Shown here: one piece after another, positions 4,079 through 50,101 of the stretch
Layout: every line of letters starts with the position of its first letter
Position numbering within the stretch: the first letter of the stretch is position 1
Sequence record: MK903282.1
Origin: Escherichia phage Mansfield
Direction: 5' to 3' (one strand)
Length of the DNA stretch: 64,000 nt
Notes under the pieces: model-generated
Databases searched by the model: none
What the model was told of the DNA's origin: nothing
The model's input: the letters and a program-made list of their open reading frames with translations, nothing else
Made by a program: the position numbers and the translations under genes

Positions 4079-4232
4079 TATTATTTTACGCGAAAGAATA
4101 AGCGCGTGCCACACAGCGAGTCCCAACGGCCCTCACCATCCCATATCGACCCAACACCAGCGGTGATTGGGCCAGCAGAATTGGCGGCATTGGCCCAGGC
4201 GAGTCGTTTCAGTTTCCAACTGCACCAACGAT

Positions 4233-4466
4233 TCACAGTTCACCTCCAGACTGCAAAACAAGTCCCGCATAGAGGATTGCTAGAGCTAAAGGCGCACCAC
4301 TTCCAGCCTCTCTATTCTCTTTGATTTGAAGAGTATCCTTAAGAAATTGCAACTGAACGTTGAATTCATTTTCAATTCCAAGCACTACAGATAATTCTTT
4401 TACAGAATCTGCATATGCCTTGTCTAGAACTTCTTTTGGTAATGTTAAAGTCAATTCACTTGCCAT
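4233..4466 (-). CDS. hypothetical protein
   Basis: ORF track 4233..4496; internal ATG at 4466 preceded by GGAG gives smaller overlap with the upstream gene. Confidence 0.35.
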   Translation of the reverse strand: MASELTLTLPKEVLDKAYADSVKELSVVLGIENEFNVQLQFLKDTLQIKENREAGSGAPLALAILYAGLVLQSGGEL

Positions 4467-4677
4467 TCTCTTTCCACTCCACAAATGTGCTGCCACTTGT
4501 TTCTCTATTTAGCAGGTATCTGCCGCGCATTCCATGAAGGCTGAATTCAACCGTCGATGGATTAGATTTTGAAAGCCACATGGCCTGACCGTCGAACGGT
4601 CCGCCAACGCATGTGTATTTAGCCTTTGGCTCACTCCTTTTGGGTCGCTTTGCCCGCTCTTTGATTGATAGTCTCAT
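4456..4677 (-). CDS. hypothetical protein
   Basis: 73-aa ORF, basic N-terminus; part of minus-strand gene string. Confidence 0.35.
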   Translation of the reverse strand: MRLSIKERAKRPKRSEPKAKYTCVGGPFDGQAMWLSKSNPSTVEFSLHGMRGRYLLNRETSGSTFVEWKENGK

Positions 4678-4892
4678 CAGTCTTCACCTTGAGATTCCAG
4701 ACAAGTAAGAACAAGCCACGTCATCGGAAGAATCAAAACCAGAGAAATAAGGGACCAGATGGACCAGCACAAGATGACAGACTTGAATGTGTGAACGTCG
4801 CCAAACACAGCAGTGAAACAAAATCCCATCACAAAAGCAAGCGTGGTGGAGTGGTTATCAATGGCTTTGATGGCGCGGTCGATGAGTTTCAT
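4677..4892 (-). CDS. small membrane protein (two predicted TM helices)
   Basis: 71 aa with two long hydrophobic segments (LAFVMGFCFTAVFG, ILCWSIWSLISLVLILPMTWLVL). Confidence 0.45.
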   Translation of the reverse strand: MKLIDRAIKAIDNHSTTLAFVMGFCFTAVFGDVHTFKSVILCWSIWSLISLVLILPMTWLVLTCLESQGED

Positions 4893-4981
4893 ATTACCTC
4901 CGGTTTTGAGTTAATATGATTATAACGCAGAGTTTCAGAAAGGCAAACTTTTTGTGAATTTATGCCGTCCATGGCAAATGA

Positions 4982-5212
4982 TTAGTGAGAAGACACGACT
5001 AATGTGCCGCTTCCTTTCGCGAAAATCTCAACACCTGGCGGGATTGTGACCGTGCCAACAACTGCGATGCCGATCAACTTGTCGTCTGCTTTTTCTTCGA
5101 AACAGATCTCTGCGGCACCGCCGCGAACTTGAATAAGTGCGCCTGATACGTTTTCAACAACAGAAAGAACGGAAGTGTAAGATGGAGTGAGTTGAATATT
5201 TACTAGGGCCAT
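4982..5212 (-). CDS. hypothetical protein
   Basis: 76-aa ORF; first gene of the minus-strand left-arm operon. Confidence 0.4.
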   Translation of the reverse strand: MALVNIQLTPSYTSVLSVVENVSGALIQVRGGAAEICFEEKADDKLIGIAVVGTVTIPPGVEIFAKGSGTLVVSSH

Positions 5213-9986: not shown

Positions 9987-10838
9987 ATGGCTTTTAAAGC
10001 TTCGAAAAAACGTGAACGCCGCTCACCCGATAGAATCGGGCGCGGCAGTCCGATAATCCCGTCAAACGCTATTGCGATGGCCTACCGTCGTGAGATGAAA
10101 GGTCTTTGCTATGCGATGATTGATGACTATCAAGCAGGCATTTCAGAATGGCTTGATAAGAAGCAGGTGCAGAAGTTTTTTGCGCAAGACTCTGCTGATT
10201 CTACATTCCAGACTCTCATGAAACGGCTGCAGCTGAAATGGGCAAAGGCGTTTGCACGTGTTGGGTCGAAGATTGCCGCTGATTTTATCAAATCGGTCGA
10301 AAAGGGTGCCACTTCTGCTACATTCGCAAGCCTTAAGTCCGCAGGCATAGAAGCGCCAAAGGCCACATATAACAAATTCGTTGAGAACACTCTTAGAACA
10401 AGCGAGACGTTTAACACGACTCTAGTGACTAAGGTCGGCGAGGATATTCACAACAGAGTGTACGAAGCAGTCATGCTTTCGCTGACTTCGCCCGACCCAG
10501 CCCAGCAAGGAACGTCAGGCATTCAGGCGGCGTTGCGAAACGTAAAACACTTCTCTGCAAAGAGGGTCGACTTGATCGCTAAAGACCAGACAAGCAAATT
10601 GTATTGCGTTCTAAGCGATGAAAGGATGCGCCAGAATGGAGTCGAAGAATTTGAGTGGGCGCACTCAGGAGCAGGAAAGGAGCCGCGAATCTCTCATGAA
10701 CACGTCGACGGAATGAGATTCAAACTTGACGACAAGCGACTATGGGAAGTTGACGGCGAATTGAAGTTCAAAAAGGGTGACATCGGTCCTCCTGGATGGG
10801 CAATACACTGCAAGTGCAGAAAAATACCAATCATTTGA
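9987..10838 (+). CDS. head morphogenesis protein (Mu gpF / SPP1 gp7-like minor head protein)
   Basis: Position directly after portal; C-terminal conserved HEHVDG...GWAIHCKCRK region typical of MuF-like proteins; ATG at 9987 abuts portal stop. Confidence 0.65.
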   Translation: MAFKASKKRERRSPDRIGRGSPIIPSNAIAMAYRREMKGLCYAMIDDYQAGISEWLDKKQVQKFFAQDSADSTFQTLMKRLQLKWAKAFARVGSKIAADFIKSVEKGATSATFASLKSAGIEAPKATYNKFVENTLRTSETFNTTLVTKVGEDIHNRVYEAVMLSLTSPDPAQQGTSGIQAALRNVKHFSAKRVDLIAKDQTSKLYCVLSDERMRQNGVEEFEWAHSGAGKEPRISHEHVDGMRFKLDDKRLWEVDGELKFKKGDIGPPGWAIHCKCRKIPII

Positions 10839-10845
10839 GGTCATT

Positions 10846-11766
10846 ATGACGATACCAATCAGCACGTTTCCTCTATCTGGACAAACGCCAGTATTGCCTG
10901 CTGTATATGCTAACGGTTTGGCGATTGTTTCAGATTTTACATCCGACAAAAACCTGATTGTTCCATTGAGTCCGCCATTGGCGTCTGGATACAATTCAGT
11001 TGGTCAATTCTTTATGATCGGTAATGACGGCGATTCTACCAGCAAGCCGAATCTGACACTTTCAGTTCCCAAAATGAACATAACAGACGTGCAGACTGGT
11101 TTAACTGCGTCTACAATCACCATCGCTTTTGGCGAAGCAGTGATTATAGGCATGGAGTCTGGAGGGTCCAAGAATGCTGTCGCCGTTAAGGTAGTCAAAT
11201 CCAGCGGCAATCAATACACGTTACCAGCGGCAACGGCTTCTGTTCTCGGCGGCGTCAAAATAGGAAGTGGCATAAGCGTTGCAGGTGACGGTACAATTAG
11301 CGTGACTCAATACTCGTTACCGATTGCATCAGCATCAACCTTAGGTGGCGTAAAGGTAGGCACGACATTATCAATTGATGGTTCTGGAGTTCTTAATATT
11401 CCGTCAAGCACTGTGCAAAACGCAAGCAATAGTGTAAGCAATCCTCCGACAACTCTGGTGAATCTGGCAACATTAAACCTGCCTGCAGGGAAATGGCTTG
11501 TGACGGCAAGTCAGTTGACTGTCGCGACAGCAGGAATTCAAGCGAATACCGGAATTACAGTCAAATTGTCAACGAGCAATTCAGATATTACTGATGATGC
11601 ATTTACGATGTCAGCTGGCATTCGGGCTGCAGGTCGTTTCGGCGGCAATATTCCAACAAAGATAATTACTCTTGCCGCGCCTGGCAATGTGTATCTAAAC
11701 TATCAATGCACAGATGCGTTGACGTCTACCGTTTACGGACAGATCACCGCAATTAAGTTGAACTAA
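10846..11766 (+). CDS. virion structural protein with internal tandem repeats (fiber-like)
   Basis: ATG at 10846 with GAGGT RBS; repeats ATASVLGGVKIGSGISVAGDGTISVT and ASASTLGGVKVGTTLSIDGSGVLNI. Confidence 0.45.
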   Translation: MTIPISTFPLSGQTPVLPAVYANGLAIVSDFTSDKNLIVPLSPPLASGYNSVGQFFMIGNDGDSTSKPNLTLSVPKMNITDVQTGLTASTITIAFGEAVIIGMESGGSKNAVAVKVVKSSGNQYTLPAATASVLGGVKIGSGISVAGDGTISVTQYSLPIASASTLGGVKVGTTLSIDGSGVLNIPSSTVQNASNSVSNPPTTLVNLATLNLPAGKWLVTASQLTVATAGIQANTGITVKLSTSNSDITDDAFTMSAGIRAAGRFGGNIPTKIITLAAPGNVYLNYQCTDALTSTVYGQITAIKLN

Positions 11767-43638: not shown

Positions 43639-44180
43639 TATTTACTCCAGATGTCATATACGCCAATTTGTTGGCAGACTTTGTGCAGTAATATTACGTC
43701 GTCTAATGCACGGTGTTTCTGTTCATATTTTCCGAAATATAATTCATACAACTCTTGAAGCTTAACTCTTCGGCCAAAAATAGGCAAGGTTTGCTCGACT
43801 GTACAAATGTTTATTTCTGGAAAATTAACATCACCAAGTGTAAGACCTTCGCGCTGTAATGCATAGTCAAGAATGTTTTTATCAAACGCATGGTTGTGCG
43901 CGATAGTTGCATCCGTCTTCTTGAATATTTCTTTTAGCTGCGGAACGAAATGAATAAATGGTGGATTGCACTCAAGGTCTTCGTTGGTTAATCCGGTAAT
44001 CTTCGTGATGATTTCTTCAATCACAATTTCAGGATTAATTATGAACTCGAAGGTTTCAAGAATCTCTTTGCCATCCGTCAACAGGCCTGCAAATTCAATA
44101 GGGCGCGGCTGCATTCCAAGCGGTGCTTTCGGGTGCACGGTTAATCCGGTTGTTTCGAAGTCATAAGGGAGAAATAACAC
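43638..44180 (-). CDS. DnaQ-like 3'-5' proofreading exonuclease (DEDDh)
   Basis: Exo motifs DFETTG, HNHAFD and HRALDD; immediately upstream of and translationally coupled to polymerase. Confidence 0.85.
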   Translation of the reverse strand: MLFLPYDFETTGLTVHPKAPLGMQPRPIEFAGLLTDGKEILETFEFIINPEIVIEEIITKITGLTNEDLECNPPFIHFVPQLKEIFKKTDATIAHNHAFDKNILDYALQREGLTLGDVNFPEINICTVEQTLPIFGRRVKLQELYELYFGKYEQKHRALDDVILLHKVCQQIGVYDIWSK

Positions 44181-44191
44181 ATTGGCCTCCT

Positions 44192-44218
44192 ACAAAAAGG
44201 CCGCCCATTAGGACGGCC
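44192..44218 (-). terminator. intrinsic terminator between metabolic island and replication genes
   Basis: GGCCGCC-N-GGACGGCC hairpin followed on minus strand by UUUUU, then AGGAGG RBS. Confidence 0.45.
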
Positions 44219-44234
44219 ACAGATTCAAGATTCG

Positions 44235-44786
44235 TTATGCAGTGTACGGAGTACCGTCTTGATTCAACCGCACGATGAACTTAAGGTCGACACCAATGAT
44301 TTCACGAGTATCAAAGATCACATAGTTGTAACGACGCTGACCAGCAATATTTGGGTTGGTGTGAGAGTCAGTTACGACTTCCTGCGCAACCTGAATGCCT
44401 TCTTCTTTAAAGAACTTACGCCATTCAGCAAGTTCAGCGGCAGTCACATGCATACCAAGATGGCTGACCTGATTATCGTGCGCATCAAGCATGTCGATGT
44501 TTTCGTTGATCCAGTTGCAACCCATTGTGTAGTCAAGGATTTCAAGCTCAAGAGGCTTACCAGCGCCGCCATCGGTGCCGTTGCCAGCCTGATAGTTGAA
44601 TCGCAAGTCAGCTTCGTTGGTGCAATCGTCGCGACGACCTTTAAATTCGTCATTTTCAAATACGCGACCAGTAGCAACAACATGATCATGGAACCATTCT
44701 GTCAGGCCGATTTTAGCCAGAAAATCCTGTGCACGCTTAGCATCTGGAATTGACAGGGCGATTTGTTCAATTTTAAAGTGTGGCAT
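44235..44786 (-). CDS. VOC/glyoxalase-fold protein (candidate)
   Basis: 183 aa; two beta-alpha-beta-beta-beta-like halves with His/Glu positions paralleling glyoxalase I (HFKIEQIALSIPDAKRAQDFLAKIG..., SHLGMHVTAAELAEWRKFF...). Confidence 0.4.
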   Translation of the reverse strand: MPHFKIEQIALSIPDAKRAQDFLAKIGLTEWFHDHVVATGRVFENDEFKGRRDDCTNEADLRFNYQAGNGTDGGAGKPLELEILDYTMGCNWINENIDMLDAHDNQVSHLGMHVTAAELAEWRKFFKEEGIQVAQEVVTDSHTNPNIAGQRRYNYVIFDTREIIGVDLKFIVRLNQDGTPYTA

Positions 44787-44806
44787 TTTGTTTCCTTAAT
44801 TAAATA

Positions 44807-45022
44807 TTATTGATTAATTACTGTGTTGTCTTCGTCCTGTTGCTTTTCAGGAGCGGGTGTGACAATTTCAAATTTAGGTTTGGGTAATTCACCTTTAGCG
44901 CCTGGGACTTCAACGACAATCTTTTTGTCAGACTCAACAGGATTTGGAACTTCAAATTTGGTTGTGTATCCTAATACAACAAGAAGCACTAAACCGATTA
45001 CCGCTACCCAGGCTTTGTTCAT
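44807..45022 (-). CDS. small membrane-anchored protein
   Basis: 71 aa; N-terminal hydrophobic anchor WVAVIGLVLLVVLGY, Pro/Lys/Glu-rich tail. Confidence 0.4.
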   Translation of the reverse strand: MNKAWVAVIGLVLLVVLGYTTKFEVPNPVESDKKIVVEVPGAKGELPKPKFEIVTPAPEKQQDEDNTVINQ

Positions 45023-45025
45023 GAT

Positions 45026-45709
45026 TTATTTCCCAAATGGAATATCAGTACCAGACATAAAGCGCCATGCGCCCGTAATTAAGATATGGCGAATGAAGTC
45101 AGCAATTACTTGCGGCTCAGTCTCCAATCCATTCATCAACGCCTTTTTCTGGTATTCAGCAGCATACTCAGGAGTCCAGCCGCGAGTCGCACAAACAGCA
45201 TCTTCAATCTGTTTAGACATGCCAGTGCCGCGCAACTTGTTAGGACTAATAGAGAATACCGTAATCCCGTATTTAGGCGTAAGTTCGTGGGCCATCTGCT
45301 TACTGATCATAAGTGCAGCGGCCTTGGAAGCATTATAACACAAGCTGGACGTCATAGGAATATGCGCAGCGTTGGAAACGATATTGATCACAAAACCTTT
45401 GTTGTCGATAAGACTTTTCAGTGCAGCCTGAGTCGTGTTAACGAAAGAGAAGGCGTTGGTATGCATAACGCGGTTAAATTCTTCGTAGTTGACATCTTCA
45501 AACCAGTTGTTGGAGTTGACGCCAGCACAGTTGATCAAGCCTTCCACGTCGTATTGAGAGAGAAGCTCTTTCATTTGTTTCGCGTTACGGATGTCATAAC
45601 CGTTGTCCAAATCAATACCGACGACTTCATGACCGTAAGCACCAAGGGTGTCAAAAATTGATTTACCAAGACCGGAATTGCAGCCAGTTACAACAATTAC
45701 TTTTTTCAT
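45026..45709 (-). CDS. short-chain dehydrogenase/reductase (SDR)
   Basis: 227 aa; cofactor motif VTGCNSGLGKS and catalytic YNASKAA. Confidence 0.8.
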   Translation of the reverse strand: MKKVIVVTGCNSGLGKSIFDTLGAYGHEVVGIDLDNGYDIRNAKQMKELLSQYDVEGLINCAGVNSNNWFEDVNYEEFNRVMHTNAFSFVNTTQAALKSLIDNKGFVINIVSNAAHIPMTSSLCYNASKAAALMISKQMAHELTPKYGITVFSISPNKLRGTGMSKQIEDAVCATRGWTPEYAAEYQKKALMNGLETEPQVIADFIRHILITGAWRFMSGTDIPFGK

Positions 45710-45775
45710 TTATTTATCCTTTTTTGGACTTCGTTTCGATGAGATAAATATAACTCATCGAAACGCACAAGTAAA

Positions 45776-46648
45776 CTATTTATTGAAATTAATATTATGG
45801 GTGTTGACGAGACGTTCACACATGGCGCTGTAAACACCATCATCGTGTATAGAGTCTTCGTGCTTCAGGCCGCTAATTGCGAAGCGTGTAAGCTTGACAA
45901 TCTTAAGCTCGAAAAGGTGCCACATGTGATAGTCTTCCGGCGTTTTCAACGTCACGCCATTAGGGAAAAGTACCTGCATAACCTGACCTACCATCACAGC
46001 GTTATCGCCATATACGGCGTTGCGTTCACGGAAAGTCGCGGCCATCGCATCAAGAATATCGGCGGCGGTTGCCGGAGATTGTTCAATTTCCACAGCCTTA
46101 TTCTCTTCTTGCCCCGTTGCGCTTGGATCAATTGCTAATTGTTGCACCACTTCACCTGCCTTGCAAAGATTAAATGTAAAGGCGATTTTATTTTGTGCCA
46201 TGGAATTATAATCCATAGCTTCCTTACGCATTGCCGCGAGAATGTCTTGTCTGTCATCAAATACGTTGATGATTCGATAATCGCCATGCCGCAACACATA
46301 CTGCAACCACTTTGATTTGATGGTCATTGACGGACGTTTGTCACCATCGTCTCTCATCTTGATGATAAATTCATCGAAAGGAAAAACATTGTCAAGACGT
46401 TCAAAGGTTGCTTGTCTGTATTTTTTTGGTCTTGCCGTCCAATATTCAACCGACTCACCGCGAAGAGTTGCAGACTCTACTGATGATGCGATGTCAGGAT
46501 AGAACTGATCATAACCAATGCCGCTGTGATAATCATCATAGTCTGACAACGGGCCTGCCACCTTGATGCGGTCTAAGCGCCAACGGTCATCAAACAGCGT
46601 TCCGTCAAGGTCGAATGCGTTTAAGATTTGGTGACTTTTAATGCTCAT
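45776..46648 (-). CDS. HAD-superfamily phosphatase (nucleotidase or 3'-phosphatase-like) with extra C-terminal domain
   Basis: HAD motif I FDLDGTLFDD and motif IV VFDDRQD; no kinase P-loop. Confidence 0.55.
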   Translation of the reverse strand: MSIKSHQILNAFDLDGTLFDDRWRLDRIKVAGPLSDYDDYHSGIGYDQFYPDIASSVESATLRGESVEYWTARPKKYRQATFERLDNVFPFDEFIIKMRDDGDKRPSMTIKSKWLQYVLRHGDYRIINVFDDRQDILAAMRKEAMDYNSMAQNKIAFTFNLCKAGEVVQQLAIDPSATGQEENKAVEIEQSPATAADILDAMAATFRERNAVYGDNAVMVGQVMQVLFPNGVTLKTPEDYHMWHLFELKIVKLTRFAISGLKHEDSIHDDGVYSAMCERLVNTHNINFNK

Positions 46649-47448
46649 CCTTTTGACACTCCATCTTTAGCCACTGGATTGTTGGTGATTGGCATTGCAT
46701 TCCAAAACTGGATGCGTAATTCTTCTTGCTGTGCAGTTGTATCCATCCAATCACGATACCAAGGGCAATGGGCTTTGCCATGACGAGGAAACGCGCATTT
46801 ACCCATACCGATGCATTGCGGCTGTAGTAAAGGATTAGCCCACGGGTGCACCTTGAGGACTTCCGCAACCATTGCGCGAAATACTTCTTGATACTCGCCT
46901 TGTGTGCGCGTGCACAAGCGGTTTGACGCCATCTGCTGCAGCGTGCGCAAGTTGAACTTTGCCATGATATGCGTTTGCATATTAGAAGGCAAAACGGCAC
47001 GTGCATCTTGAATCTCTGCGCCAGCCGCGCGAAGTTCTTGGTATAGGGCGTCAATGGTCGCCATTGCATCATCCCACTTCTCTGCCAGTGCAGCAGCCTT
47101 CTCGTCATGGCGAGTCCAGCCCTTTGGATCATCCTCTGGGTAAGTAAATTTGGCAGGACGAATCGCATCAAAAGCAGAAGATTCCTGAGCGCGGCTTGTG
47201 CGTTCTTGATATGCGCCTGTGCGTGTGCGTACCATCTGATGAGTCATATTCTTTGATACATCAGTAATGTCAAAGATATAGTCCACAAAGTCAAAAGGTG
47301 ACTTGATTGTATCAAGCATGTAGCGCCAGTGCTCTTGCTTCTCTGATTCCGTCATTTCAGAGACAGGCTTGCCAGTCATGCGCGTGTTCTTTGTTTCCAG
47401 CAAAAGGTCAAGTGCATCTTGGGTGTATCGAATTAATTCAACTTTCAT
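46645..47448 (-). CDS. thyX: ThyX-like flavin-dependent thymidylate synthase homolog
   Basis: 267 aa; SPFDFVDYIFDITDVSKNMTHQMVRTRTGAYQERTSR aligns with the ThyX RHR-X7-S region but reads RTR; ARAVLPSNMQTHIMAKFNLRTLQQMASNR matches second ThyX conserved block. Confidence 0.7.
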   Translation of the reverse strand: MKVELIRYTQDALDLLLETKNTRMTGKPVSEMTESEKQEHWRYMLDTIKSPFDFVDYIFDITDVSKNMTHQMVRTRTGAYQERTSRAQESSAFDAIRPAKFTYPEDDPKGWTRHDEKAAALAEKWDDAMATIDALYQELRAAGAEIQDARAVLPSNMQTHIMAKFNLRTLQQMASNRLCTRTQGEYQEVFRAMVAEVLKVHPWANPLLQPQCIGMGKCAFPRHGKAHCPWYRDWMDTTAQQEELRIQFWNAMPITNNPVAKDGVSKG

Positions 47449-47461
47449 TTTAATTATCCTA

Positions 47462-47908
47462 TTAACGGTAATTCACTAATTGTTGATCACCAGAGAAGGT
47501 GCAATGATAAACGAATTGTGCGTTGTAAAGCAATTGAAAACTTTTCTTTGGTTCATTATTAGCACTCATCGATGTGAATACTTCTGCACCGGAACGGTTT
47601 TCACCAATCAGATTGATAAAGCCGCCAGTTGAACGAGGTTGAACGAAAGTGAAACGTTGCATCCACGGAGTACGGTTGGCACCTTTCCCTGTGAATCCCT
47701 GAATCTGAATATTCAGACCTTCTTGCTCGTTAACACCGATGTAAGTGGTAATCGTTGCACCAGTTGTCGCTGCGGTCTTACCGTCCATCGCTTCACAATC
47801 GTAAACAGCGATTGAATCGGAAGTACGGACGGCAGCTTCAGTCGCTTCCATATACATGGTGCCGAGAATAGCAGTTGCGGCAAGCGCGATTCCAGTGATT
47901 CGTTTCAT
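47462..47908 (-). CDS. secreted protein with signal peptide
   Basis: 148 aa; MKRITGIALAATAILGTMYMEATEAA signal-peptide-like N-terminus. Confidence 0.45.
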   Translation of the reverse strand: MKRITGIALAATAILGTMYMEATEAAVRTSDSIAVYDCEAMDGKTAATTGATITTYIGVNEQEGLNIQIQGFTGKGANRTPWMQRFTFVQPRSTGGFINLIGENRSGAEVFTSMSANNEPKKSFQLLYNAQFVYHCTFSGDQQLVNYR

Positions 47909-47973
47909 TTTCGTTTCCTCTATGAGTTCTGCTTCAATGATTAAAGTATACGCCCATTGAAGCAGAAAGCAAA

Positions 47974-48969
47974 TTATTTATTAGCAATATAAGCAAATTT
48001 TTGATAGTTATTTGCTTTGATGAGTTTTTCAACTTCAGCAAGGTCATGAGCGACGTCATCAAGCAAAATGTTGCGCCAGGTAGCAAATCGACCGACACTA
48101 AACACATTCAAATCCATAGTCAGCTGCAGGAGTAGGGCGTGTCGCAAGTCCTTCGGAATGTCGACAATCTTGCCATATTTCTGGTCGACCTTTTCAACTT
48201 CTTCAAGAGCAATGTCACTCCATGAGAGGCCAAAGGCTGTCAACACTTCGTCGACTTCTGCGCGCAACTTCATGTCACGGTAACGAGTGATGCCGCCAGC
48301 GGCTTCAACTGCAGCTGCACTTACGCTGACCAAAGGAATAGTTTCAATGATAAGCGTGTCACCAGTGATTGATGCGCGGTAAGTTCTGACGGAGTAGTCA
48401 GGGAAGTAAATCGTCTGATACAACTCGCACTTACGTTTAATCTTAAAGCGATAAACACGAATATTTGCCTTATCAAATGAGAAATCAAGCTTTTGATCAA
48501 TCCCAGCCAGCTTCATCATGACTGGCAGCGGCGACGTGTTGATGATTGGCGTCTCGCTATAGCCGCAAAGAGTATCAACCGGAGTATTAAAGAATATGCG
48601 GTCACCCAGTTTGTCGACAAGCTGATCATAAAAGTCATCAGGTGCAATATAACGCGTTGCAGTTTTAAGCTTCATAATTGAACGGCTGCCAAACTGATTG
48701 GTGACCTTCATGGAATACATATTGGCAAGGTTGATTGGGCAATGGTCGTGGTAGTAGTTGCCGCGAAAATACACAGCCTTGTCAACTGTCACGGCCTTGA
48801 AAGGGATTCCGGTAATACGGCTTACTTCTTCGCCGCGAAAGCGTAGAAGCGCCTTGTGCTGTTGCGCTCGTTCCCCTGCTTCGTACACAATAGAGTTCGG
48901 GAAGTGACACGCTGTGATAAGTCCTGCCAGTCCGCCGCCGATAATCATTACAGGTTGTTTCATGTTCAT
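47974..48969 (-). CDS. FAD/NAD(P)-binding oxidoreductase
   Basis: 331 aa; N-terminal Rossmann dinucleotide-binding motif VMIIGGGLAGLITA. Confidence 0.55.
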   Translation of the reverse strand: MNMKQPVMIIGGGLAGLITACHFPNSIVYEAGERAQQHKALLRFRGEEVSRITGIPFKAVTVDKAVYFRGNYYHDHCPINLANMYSMKVTNQFGSRSIMKLKTATRYIAPDDFYDQLVDKLGDRIFFNTPVDTLCGYSETPIINTSPLPVMMKLAGIDQKLDFSFDKANIRVYRFKIKRKCELYQTIYFPDYSVRTYRASITGDTLIIETIPLVSVSAAAVEAAGGITRYRDMKLRAEVDEVLTAFGLSWSDIALEEVEKVDQKYGKIVDIPKDLRHALLLQLTMDLNVFSVGRFATWRNILLDDVAHDLAEVEKLIKANNYQKFAYIANK

Positions 48970-49102
48970 TTGTCCTTTGTGGGTGATATGAGAAGTATAA
49001 TAGCTAAATTATTTTACAGCAACAAGTCATTTTATTTAGTACAGATGAAAAAAAGACCCACAACAAGTGTGGGTCAATTACCGCTGCATAACCGTCCTAA
49101 GG

Positions 49103-49948
49103 TTATTCCGCTTGATCACCGTCTTCGGCATCTTCGTTGGATTCAACATCGACAAACTCGATGTGACCCATCTCTTCCAGCTTGCTCAGGTAGGAGCGAA
49201 CTGAAGCGCCAAACAGTTGATCTTTAACTTTTTCGCCCAGCTCATCGATAGACTGTGCCACGCCAACTTCGCCTTCTTTGATCGCCGCCAGAACGCGTCC
49301 ACGGGTGGAATGCTCTTGCGGCTGACTCAGGCCATTGCCAGTGTAGATGAAGTGAGTAGCTTTTGCACGACGCTGACCATTGGCCTTTTTGGCAGCCTTA
49401 CGTTCTGCGATGGCTTTGCGACGTTCTTCAGCTTCTTGCTTACGCTGTTCTTTCTGCTGTTCTGCAGCTTCTTTCGCCGCAATCTTAGCAGCTTCACGCT
49501 CTGCCTTGCGTTTCGCTTTGGCTTCTTCTTTGGCCTTCTCTTTTTCGGCCTTCGCTGCAGCACGGGCTTGATCACGCTCTGCTTTCTTAGCAGCAGCTTG
49601 TTCAGCTTTCAGGCGCTTGGCTTCTTCTTTAGCCTTTGCCTTTTCGATTTCTTTCGCTGCTTTAGCGGCTTCACGCTCTGCTTTCTTAGCAGCAGCCTTT
49701 TCTGCACGCTCTTTGGCCTTCTTGGCTGCTTCTTCAGCACGCTTCTGAGCCTTCTCATCAGCAGCCTGCTTGCGTTTCAGGGCAGCTTCTTCACGCTTGG
49801 CTTGTTTTTCCTGCTCACGCTTCTGGCGTTTTTCTTCGGCTTCTTTCTTTTTAGCCAGACGTTTTTCTTCAGCCACGCGACGACGTTCTGCTGCAGCTGC
49901 TTGTTTTTCTTCTTTAGATAATACTTTGATTGCTTCGGCCATGTTCAC
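49103..49948 (-). CDS. charged single-alpha-helix (ER/K-rich) protein with C-terminal globular domain
   Basis: 281 aa; about 200 residues of near-pure K/A/E/R/Q, then a globular segment and acidic tail. Confidence 0.6.
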   Translation of the reverse strand: MNMAEAIKVLSKEEKQAAAAERRRVAEEKRLAKKKEAEEKRQKREQEKQAKREEAALKRKQAADEKAQKRAEEAAKKAKERAEKAAAKKAEREAAKAAKEIEKAKAKEEAKRLKAEQAAAKKAERDQARAAAKAEKEKAKEEAKAKRKAEREAAKIAAKEAAEQQKEQRKQEAEERRKAIAERKAAKKANGQRRAKATHFIYTGNGLSQPQEHSTRGRVLAAIKEGEVGVAQSIDELGEKVKDQLFGASVRSYLSKLEEMGHIEFVDVESNEDAEDGDQAE

Positions 49949-50101
49949 AGTCCTTAAATAAATTAGTTTATTTTATATTCCCCGTTTGGGATAACTTAAT
50001 TATGCCTTCAGTCGCCGCCAGTAGCAACTAAAAACTCTGGCGGCAATGCCACTTTAATTAAACTGATTTTCAGTTTTATTTTTCGTAAATTTACGTCAAC
50101 A

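Follow-up and report, generated by a model that had tools for sequence, protein, structure and literature searches.

What does a ThyX-type enzyme do once the histidine of its family signature has gone? The question is raised by a gene in a 64,000-nucleotide stretch of Escherichia phage Mansfield (MK903282.1), the whole of which we call the window. Its product resembles the flavin-dependent thymidylate synthase ThyX and reads R-T-R where the ThyX signature RHR-X7/8-S has R-H-R. An earlier, sequence-only reading had proposed that the protein is a ThyX homologue and that the lost histidine could indicate altered substrate or chemistry, or may simply be tolerated. We found that RTR is one of several active-site changes shared by a large, essentially virus-only subfamily, and that the gene is nearly always accompanied by one particular upstream gene, here called the partner. 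The parts of the ThyX-like open reading frame (ORF) discussed below are as follows; residues of the T. maritima enzyme carry the prefix Tm.

46645..47448, minus strand: ThyX-like ORF, 267 aa, ATG start, intact; ThyX fold in residues 1-204, C-terminal extension in residues 205-267
47188..47235, minus strand: signature segment M72-VRTRTGAYQERTSR-A87, with R74-T75-R76 (codons 47221-47229) in place of RHR
47287..47313, minus strand: residues 46-54, DTIKSPFDF, aligned by HMMER on Tm H51-G-H53-E-T-P-F-E-H59, with Ile48 on His53 and Phe54 on His59
46912..47001, minus strand: retained arginines R150 (Tm R147; 46999-47001), R168 (Tm R165) and R177 (Tm R174; 46918-46920), followed by C179 (46912-46914)
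46765..46815, minus strand: cysteine motif C212-x5-C218...C228, which together with C179 makes a putative four-cysteine metal site

The active site of the ThyX-like protein

The ORF has an AGGA Shine-Dalgarno sequence ~9-12 nt 5' of its ATG. Over positions 44000-50000 the window is 93-96% identical in nucleotide sequence to its relatives in Wifcevirus (the WFH/WFC/ECML-117/Bas98-101 group), a genus of E. coli myoviruses that is kin to the Pseudomonas PB1-like phages. The protein matched Pfam Thy1 (PF02511) over residues 5-203 (E=1.9e-30; 106.5 bits, cutoff 24.8), spanning profile positions 2-191 of 191, and also matched PHROG 85 'thymidylate synthase'; its database annotations are uniformly thymidylate synthase. 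An AlphaFold2 model computed from an 82-sequence alignment was confident (pLDDT 92.1, pTM 0.89), and its top Foldseek matches were structures of T. maritima ThyX (7ndz, 1o26 and others) at E ~1e-11 and ~20% identity, with a target-normalised TM of ~0.8. Against the T. maritima and M. tuberculosis enzymes the Foldseek probability was 1.00, with TM 0.67-0.81 and an rmsd of ~3 Å over ~206 columns. By domain match, alignment with Tm ThyX and predicted structure the product is therefore a member of the ThyX fold, as the sequence-only reading had supposed. The two ThyX sequences used in our local alignments, from T. maritima and M. tuberculosis, match the PDB segments; Tm numbering was verified by the H53A mutant chain 4GTF in the phmmer output and by the residue numbers of PMC11940539.

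Residues 72-86 read MVRTRTGAYQERTSR, and in the phmmer alignment R74-T75-R76 sits on Tm R78-H79-R80. The segment runs R74-T75-R76-x7-T84-S85, so that relative to RHR-X7/8-S both arginines are kept, the histidine is replaced and the residue aligned with Tm Ser88 is a threonine (Tm Ser88 falls on Thr84, Gly89 on Ser85, Arg90 on R86 and Tyr91 on A87). The register of the earlier alignment was right, and no canonical RHR occurs elsewhere in the 267-residue protein. The motif had been read as R-T-R followed, at the proper distance, by the signature serine; the first half of that reading stands, and the second needs a refinement, as Ser85 lies on Tm Gly89. RTR was present in 120 of 120 listed homologues (90%-identity clusters, down to 52% identity), indicating that it is neither a chance substitution nor a sequencing error.

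A search over 1.84 billion cluster representatives returned 1615 relatives, and the best 150 of these supplied the position counts that follow. Position 75 was T in ~74, H in ~32, Q in 14, S in 10 and N in 7, and loci with the same partner gene included one with RHR (L011), one with RNR (L007) and one with RSR (L009). Since T, H, N, S and Q thus alternate within one subfamily beside the same partner, the data do not support treating the exchange of His for Thr as informative in itself. All these replacements are polar hydrogen-bond donors, a spectrum that suits a hydrogen-bond-donor role and fits the suggestion that Thr at this position is tolerated. In PolB of Streptomyces cacaoi, the nucleotide 5'-phosphate has Arg82 and His83 of the RHR motif as its ligands (PMC5003785), which is why we take the RHR histidine for a phosphate ligand; the role of Tm His79 is here drawn from this description of PolB. 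Thr75 would take over the hydrogen bond to the nucleotide phosphate, in which case the RTR change itself would be tolerated.

Attention to RTR was incomplete rather than mistaken, for the equivalents of Tm His53, His59, Tyr91 and His178 are changed too. Tm His178 is replaced by Arg181, Trp181 by Gly184 and Ile183 by Tyr186, and the His53 and Tyr91 that characterise canonical ThyX are Ile48 and Ala87. Position 48 was I in 93, L in 20, V in 10 and H in 11 of the relatives counted, position 54 was F in 119 and H in 9, and position 87 was V, T, F, A or I, with Y in only 12. For comparison, a scan of 185,579 species, one genome per species, yielded 62 usable canonical cellular thyX loci, in which His79 was found in 62/62, Ser88 in 62/62, Tyr91 in 58/62, His59 in 60/62 and Trp181 in 60/60; these cellular ThyX are 94-100% conserved at the positions that are changed here. 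The aligned sequences split cleanly, with cellular 'LEH / RHR / SQRY / ARF / QWEI' on one side and viral 'SSWEF / R(T)R / xR(V,T,A) / ARG / QGEY' on the other. The subfamily was essentially absent from the cellular genomes of the same scan: its close relatives there were about ten contigs of metagenome-assembled genomes, <=60 kb long and carrying phage replication genes, and these differ from cellular ThyX at the His79, Ser88, Tyr91, His59 and Trp181 positions. Other phage ThyX-like proteins have RQR (Gordonia) or RSR (Mycobacterium and Streptomyces), and one Staphylococcus phage enzyme is fully canonical.

The residues that hold the substrate and flavin tell a different story. Q71 (Tm Q75) and six arginines, including R168, are invariant or nearly so among relatives at ~30% identity: across the subfamily R74, R76, R86, R150 and R177 (Tm R78, R80, R90, R147 and R174) either never vary or reach at least 96% conservation, R150 and R177 being invariant in its broad alignment; R168 is conserved in 141/148. 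The ligands of the adenosine and pyrophosphate of flavin adenine dinucleotide (FAD) are reportedly Tm T55, E58, N163 and R165, with which the chemically equivalent S50, D53, N166 and R168 align. Tm R78 stabilises the reduced flavin (FADH-) and R174 activates deoxyuridine monophosphate (dUMP) (PMC11940539, PMC8316439; for the role of R174, PMC8316439), whereas the conserved Tm His53, one of the residues lost, stacks on flavin or folate and hydrogen-bonds Y91 (PMC11940539, PMC8316439). The dUMP/FAD side of the active site thus looks intact and the folate/NADPH side, with H53 and Y91, looks rebuilt. The replacements G151, R181, G184 and Y186 are themselves conserved, which points to a remodelled site and not a decayed one. 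The arginines that contact uracil O2 and O4 and the phosphate (Tm R78, R80, R90, R147, R174) are invariant; dCMP, which had been raised as a possible substrate, was rejected because those donating hydrogen bonds to O2 and O4 are among them.

One metagenomic member of the subfamily, P0166 (637 aa), contains an intein (Pfam Intein_splicing) at residues ~75-462, inserted at GVTRAF|C...HN|THQLVRHR, six residues ahead of the RxR motif. The position of this insertion, TRAF|THQxVRxR, marks the motif as a functionally critical site. Apart from this intein, the extensions of the longer subfamily members held no informative extra domain.

The C-terminal extension has a pattern of its own. C179, two residues past the catalytic arginine (R177, Tm R174), covaries with the C-x4-7-C...C of the extension: among 139 family representatives, 83 had both the C179-type cysteine and at least three tail cysteines, 56 had neither and none was mixed. 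Non-canonical members have the pattern, and so do some canonical cellular ThyX (e.g. RCC..., loci L015, L021 and L025), but it is absent from the solved structures that matched the ThyX-like protein (T. maritima, M. tuberculosis). Probably the four cysteines form a Zn or Fe-S site by which the extension is fastened to the catalytic helix.

Co-inheritance with an upstream partner gene

Two neighbours on the same strand recur with the ThyX-like gene.

47974..48969, minus strand: partner, 331 aa, phrog_4828, with an N-terminal FAD/NAD-type GxGxxG (MIIGGGLAGL) and an invariant Glu30
45776..46648, minus strand: fusion of a HAD (PNKP-type phosphatase) domain and DUF6378, 290 aa, its start overlapping the ThyX-like stop by 4 nt

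A partner homologue (28-41% identity, tblastn) lay upstream of the ThyX-like gene, on the same strand, in 11/11 subfamily loci, and beside a canonical cellular thyX in none of ~70 loci (tblastn, flanks up to 6 kb). We also counted both genes in 50,697 phage records. The counts for the first groups below were made with the window proteins as queries; the last line and the totals were obtained with the Rhizobium phage proteins as queries, at E <= 1e-20 for the ThyX-like protein.

Pseudomonas records: ThyX-like 292, partner 292
Escherichia records: ThyX-like 26, partner 26
Serratia records: ThyX-like 9, partner 9
Rhizobium records: ThyX-like 10, partner 8
Xanthomonas 6 and 6, Pantoea 3 and 3, Vibrio 2 and 2, Ralstonia 1 and 1 (ThyX-like and partner; Rhizobium queries)

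In total, 360 records had the ThyX-like subfamily and 361 had the partner, which was absent from the Gordonia, Mycobacterium, Streptomyces, Clostridium, Bacillus and Sulfolobus viruses of this census that carry other ThyX types. In one of the Vibrio phages, PVA7, the partner homologue (4110-5001, directly upstream of thyX) appeared as two ORFs (4110-4622 and 4624-5001) and two tblastn pieces, which would reflect either a frameshift or sequencing error or a split gene.

The partner itself matched no Pfam or NCBIfam family, and its PHROG entry is listed as function unassigned. NAD_binding_8 gave a weak match in 34/49 members of the partner family, and a PDB profile search aligned the N-terminus with those of amine oxidases at E ~0.1; the 1916 relatives are nearly all annotated 'hypothetical'. 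The protein has no second NAD(P)H motif and is no recognisable flavin reductase. Numerous Arg, Lys and His positions are invariant in it, which suggests that its ligand is anionic. One database annotation prompted a comparison with UDP-galactopyranose mutase; this identity was not supported, hhalign giving a probability of 4% and the hmmsearch match being limited to GxGxxG. By eye only, a C-terminal likeness of GRFATW to GRLAEY can be made out.

The order partner, ThyX-like, HAD-DUF6378 is found on three backbones, namely the PB1/Wifcevirus-type myoviruses, 40-kb Ralstonia and Vibrio phages, and the 207-kb Kleczkowskaviridae; in most subfamily loci the ThyX-like gene is followed by the HAD-DUF6378 gene, as it also is in Rhizobium phage Y65 and Ralstonia phage PY059YO380. 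In Y65 (RHph_Y65, NC_070967.1; Kleczkowskaviridae, 207 kb) the genes detected in common with the window are these three only, in the same order, which points to a functional triad. They are interspersed there with unrelated small genes and lie beside a dUTPase and ribonucleotide reductase, and the PB1-type exonuclease and polymerase were not detected in the 19-kb locus examined.

The complete Y65 genome encodes the alpha and beta subunits of ribonucleotide reductase, dUTPase, dCMP deaminase, dihydrofolate reductase (DHFR), a 5'-deoxynucleotidase and a NUDIX protein. No ThyA was detected in it (best tblastn E = 0.41; E. coli ThyA query), and its sole ThyX-family gene is of the ThyX-like type, so the ThyX-like protein would fill the single 'dUMP C5' slot of the pathway. 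This slot supports a thymidylate-synthase-like role and fits methylation and hydroxymethylation alike. Canonical ThyX yields tetrahydrofolate, and a DHFR is therefore an odd companion in a genome whose only such enzyme is ThyX-like; it hints that folate may be oxidised here. In the 64-kb window, likewise, no ThyA homologue was detected (best tblastn E 0.45; same query). The Y65 locus (L095) also has features at 609-1124 and 10186-11436 (DHFR and a PurZ-like '2-aminooxy adenylosuccinate synthetase'), the latter suggesting, on its annotation, a 2-aminoadenine (Z) genome.

What the triad may make

The reading that we favour, with about even confidence, is that the ThyX-like protein is a variant that forms thymidine monophosphate (dTMP), a flavin-dependent dUMP C5-methylase working within the triad. 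It would bind FAD and dUMP and install a one-carbon unit at uracil C5, giving dTMP for phage DNA synthesis. The changed part would be the other face of the flavin, which serves folate and NADPH, where His53 and Tyr91 are gone and G151, R181, G184 and Y186 stand instead. This rebuilt site would go with the co-inherited FAD/NAD-type Rossmann protein, coupled to it physically or functionally, which would supply reducing equivalents or the one-carbon unit, and the phosphatase-like HAD-DUF6378 protein would complete a three-gene thymidylate module in the replication operon. The milder form of a more novel reading, whose strongest form is given further below, is a thymidylate synthase of two flavoproteins, the partner standing in for direct reduction by NADPH or for carbon delivery from folate. 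We hold this with somewhat less than even confidence and rate it more likely than a triad for a non-canonical nucleotide. If true, it might produce dihydrofolate and so explain the DHFR of Y65.

Among known systems, the protein resembles canonical ThyX (FDTS, EC 2.1.1.148; TM0449, Rv2754c, PBCV-1 A674R) in its fold, its Thy1 match, its dUMP/FAD arginine set with the glutamine equivalent to Tm Q75, and in being the only candidate thymidylate synthase in a phage with its own deoxynucleotide genes. It differs in RTR, in the changes at Tm His53 (to Ile), His59 (Phe), Ser88 (Thr), Tyr91 (Ala), His178 (Arg) and Trp181/Ile183 (Gly/Tyr), in a ~60-residue four-cysteine C-terminal extension, in a score below the TIGR02170 cutoff and in the 331-aa partner that nearly always accompanies it. 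PolB, which methylates UMP and dUMP in polyoxin biosynthesis (PMC5003785), likewise has the ThyX fold and sets a precedent for a change of specificity; however, it is 38% identical to Tm ThyX and keeps Arg82-His83, Ser96, Arg98 and Tyr99, its specificity residing in tyrosines of Loop 1 and Loop 2 (PMC5003785). The ThyX-like protein lacks equivalents of that His and of Tyr99 (Thr75, Ala87), has a partner gene, and belongs to the replication operon of a phage, not to an antibiotic cluster. The ThyX-like proteins of actinobacteriophages (Gordonia, Mycobacterium, Streptomyces) also have RQR or RSR, lack the His53, His59 and Tyr91 equivalents and carry the four-cysteine motif, but they form a sub-branch at 25-30% identity with 310-380 aa, QWEI or QFEW in place of QGEY, and no 331-aa partner. 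Two-component flavin-dependent systems, in which a flavin-using catalytic subunit stands beside a separate dinucleotide-binding protein, offer a functional analogy that rests on gene co-occurrence; no homology of the partner to their flavin reductases was recognisable in the PDB profile search or in Pfam scans of each family member.

Several observations weigh against the favoured reading. Tm S88 and Y91 are described as 'strictly conserved' and as aiding methylene transfer, and Y91 mutants are 100- to 1000-fold slower (PMC11940539, PMC8316439); the PolB mutant Y99A, at the position equivalent to Tm Y91, is nearly dead (PMC5003785). An enzyme without His53, Ser88 and Tyr91 may thus differ in chemistry. 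The ORF scores below the NCBIfam TIGR02170 equivalog cutoff (82.1 against 87.9 bits), and we found no published assay of any subfamily member. The only recognisable part of the partner is its beta-alpha-beta GxGxxG with Glu30, and the long representatives include no partner-ThyX fusion. In the records of Rhizobium phages TM39 (190 kb) and TM21B (154 kb) the ThyX-like gene occurs with no partner. Most loci share a larger replication module with an exonuclease and a PolC-like polymerase (31-44% identity), so part of the synteny is inherited and the link to the partner could be by descent only. Finally, Wifceviruses are reported to be insensitive to most restriction-modification systems, with no known protection mechanism (BASEL), as would fit a modified base.

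Some of these observations would suit a plain stand-alone ThyX using NADPH and methylenetetrahydrofolate, in which H79T, H53I, Y91A and the other changes are compensated internally and the neighbours have unrelated jobs. Nothing is lost of the fold or of the arginines that bind substrate and FAD, the annotation is uniformly thymidylate synthase, the partner mostly sits inside the larger block with exonuclease and polymerase, and neither the two partner-less phages nor the lack of fusions would need explaining. We nevertheless consider this unlikely. In Y65 the common genes shrink to the triad with its order kept; co-occurrence is ~1:1 over 360 phage genomes, and the partner is missing from every phage with another ThyX type and at the ~70 cellular loci; both partner-less exceptions are records much shorter than their ~203-207 kb relatives, TM39 being labelled a partial genome and the ThyX match in TM21B being truncated. 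That the partner has an FAD-type motif would also be an improbable coincidence beside a flavoenzyme with a rebuilt cofactor face. An inactive relic or a regulatory nucleotide-binding protein, its fold kept for dUMP/FAD binding or a structural role, would explain why several residues reported as essential in canonical ThyX are gone; we regard it as very improbable, given catalytic and binding arginines that are invariant at ~30% identity, conserved replacement residues (G151, R181, G184, Y186), an intein in the motif and a Y65 genome with no other thymidylate synthase.

An altered chemistry is about as unlikely as a stand-alone enzyme. The product would be another C5-modified pyrimidine, such as 5-hydroxymethyl-dUMP, which would arise if the exocyclic methylene intermediate captured water instead of being reduced, and the partner, the HAD phosphatase (perhaps a nucleotidase specific for dTMP or dNMP) and a neighbouring short-chain dehydrogenase/reductase (SDR) would complete a pathway to a non-canonical base. 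Tyr91 is the proposed general acid for methylene transfer, and its loss, with that of Ser88 and His53, touches both this step and the positioning of flavin and folate; the cassette has a phosphatase and in some phages a reductase, and the 5'-deoxynucleotidase and dCMP deaminase of Y65 would suit a 5-hydroxymethyluracil pathway equally well. The restriction sites of the window can be read both ways. EcoRI (16), EcoRV (5) and EcoKI (5) sites remain, as the presence of a modified base would allow, and HindIII and SspI sites are enriched, but GATC is strongly depleted (109 observed against 258 +/- 16 expected) and BamHI, KpnI and SacII sites are absent, which indicates DNA that is still exposed to restriction. 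The annotated genes of the phage include none of the kinases or glycosyl-, amino- and other transferases that typify thymidine hypermodification. In the literature we found no report of modified DNA in PB1-like phages, of which hundreds have been sequenced and handled; the published digest of one of them, JG024, used SacII only, whose site holds no thymine, and is uninformative. The DHFR of Y65 fits a methylation that oxidises or consumes folate better than a hydroxymethylation, and the conserved uracil-reading arginines make dCMP an unlikely substrate. Of the sequence-only reading's idea of an altered enzyme, what survives is that the protein is not a textbook ThyX; RTR is not the reason, and the loss of His53 and Tyr91 together with the gene partnership keeps an altered mechanism alive. 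More doubtful still is the strongest form, in which the triad serves as a pyrimidine C5-modification system peculiar to viruses and does not make dTMP by the plain ThyX route. Were it true, 5-hydroxymethyl-dUMP or a derivative would be released, the phosphatase would remove the competing canonical nucleotide, and the base change would explain why most restriction-modification systems fail to act on Wifceviruses.

The mechanism of ThyX, a target for antibacterial drugs, has been built on RHR, His53, Ser88 and Tyr91, and here is a lineage in >360 sequenced phages that lacks most of these 'strictly conserved' residues yet keeps the substrate-binding arginines. If dTMP is still the product, the lineage is a natural experiment that shows which residues the reaction really needs, and it may disclose a novel supply of electrons or carbon to the flavin; with another product, it would offer a new way to modified DNA in phages and could be the cause of Wifcevirus restriction resistance. 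PB1-like Pseudomonas phages, counted in the BASEL paper among the phages most used in personalised therapy, belong to the lineage. Its genes are now annotated merely as 'thymidylate synthase' and 'hypothetical protein', and we found no earlier description of the ThyX divergence or of the partnership in the literature.

The surrounding transcription unit

Between two terminators lie, tightly packed, the partner, the ThyX-like gene, the HAD-DUF6378 fusion, the SDR and small ORFs.

49055..49075, minus strand: strong intrinsic terminator (8-bp stem, 5 GC pairs, T7 tail) just upstream of the partner, at the start of the unit
47462..47908, minus strand: 148-aa ORF separating the partner from the ThyX-like gene; its N-terminus resembles that of a signal peptide or lipoprotein (MKRITGIALAATAILG...)
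45026..45709, minus strand: SDR, FabG-like, 227 aa (Pfam adh_short, E=1.2e-31)
44235-44786, minus strand: 183-aa hypothetical ORF downstream of the SDR
44199..44218, minus strand: strong intrinsic terminator (8-bp stem, 7 GC pairs, T5 tail) at the end of the unit

The third gene of the triad matches Pfam HAD_PNKP over residues 12-144 (E=1.8e-7), and its C-terminal domain (residues ~186-290) matches DUF6378 in 6/10 members of the HAD-fusion family. The name 'polynucleotide kinase/phosphorylase' is misleading, because the HAD half alone resembles PNKP and the C-terminus is DUF6378, with no kinase. In the 100-residue DUF6378 segment (1 = protein residue 191), R19, Y23, G31, K62, R65, D75, S76, D79 and Y83 are invariant; a search of DUF6378 against the PDB gave spurious POU-domain matches only, which were rejected.

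The 148-aa ORF matched no family and had a counterpart in no related locus, and it therefore looks like a moron-type insertion into the cassette. The SDR adjoins the cassette in only three related loci (L008, L011 and L014) and is an accessory member of it. The 183-aa ORF stands next to the SDR in L008 and L011 too, and may belong to the same accessory part of the cassette.

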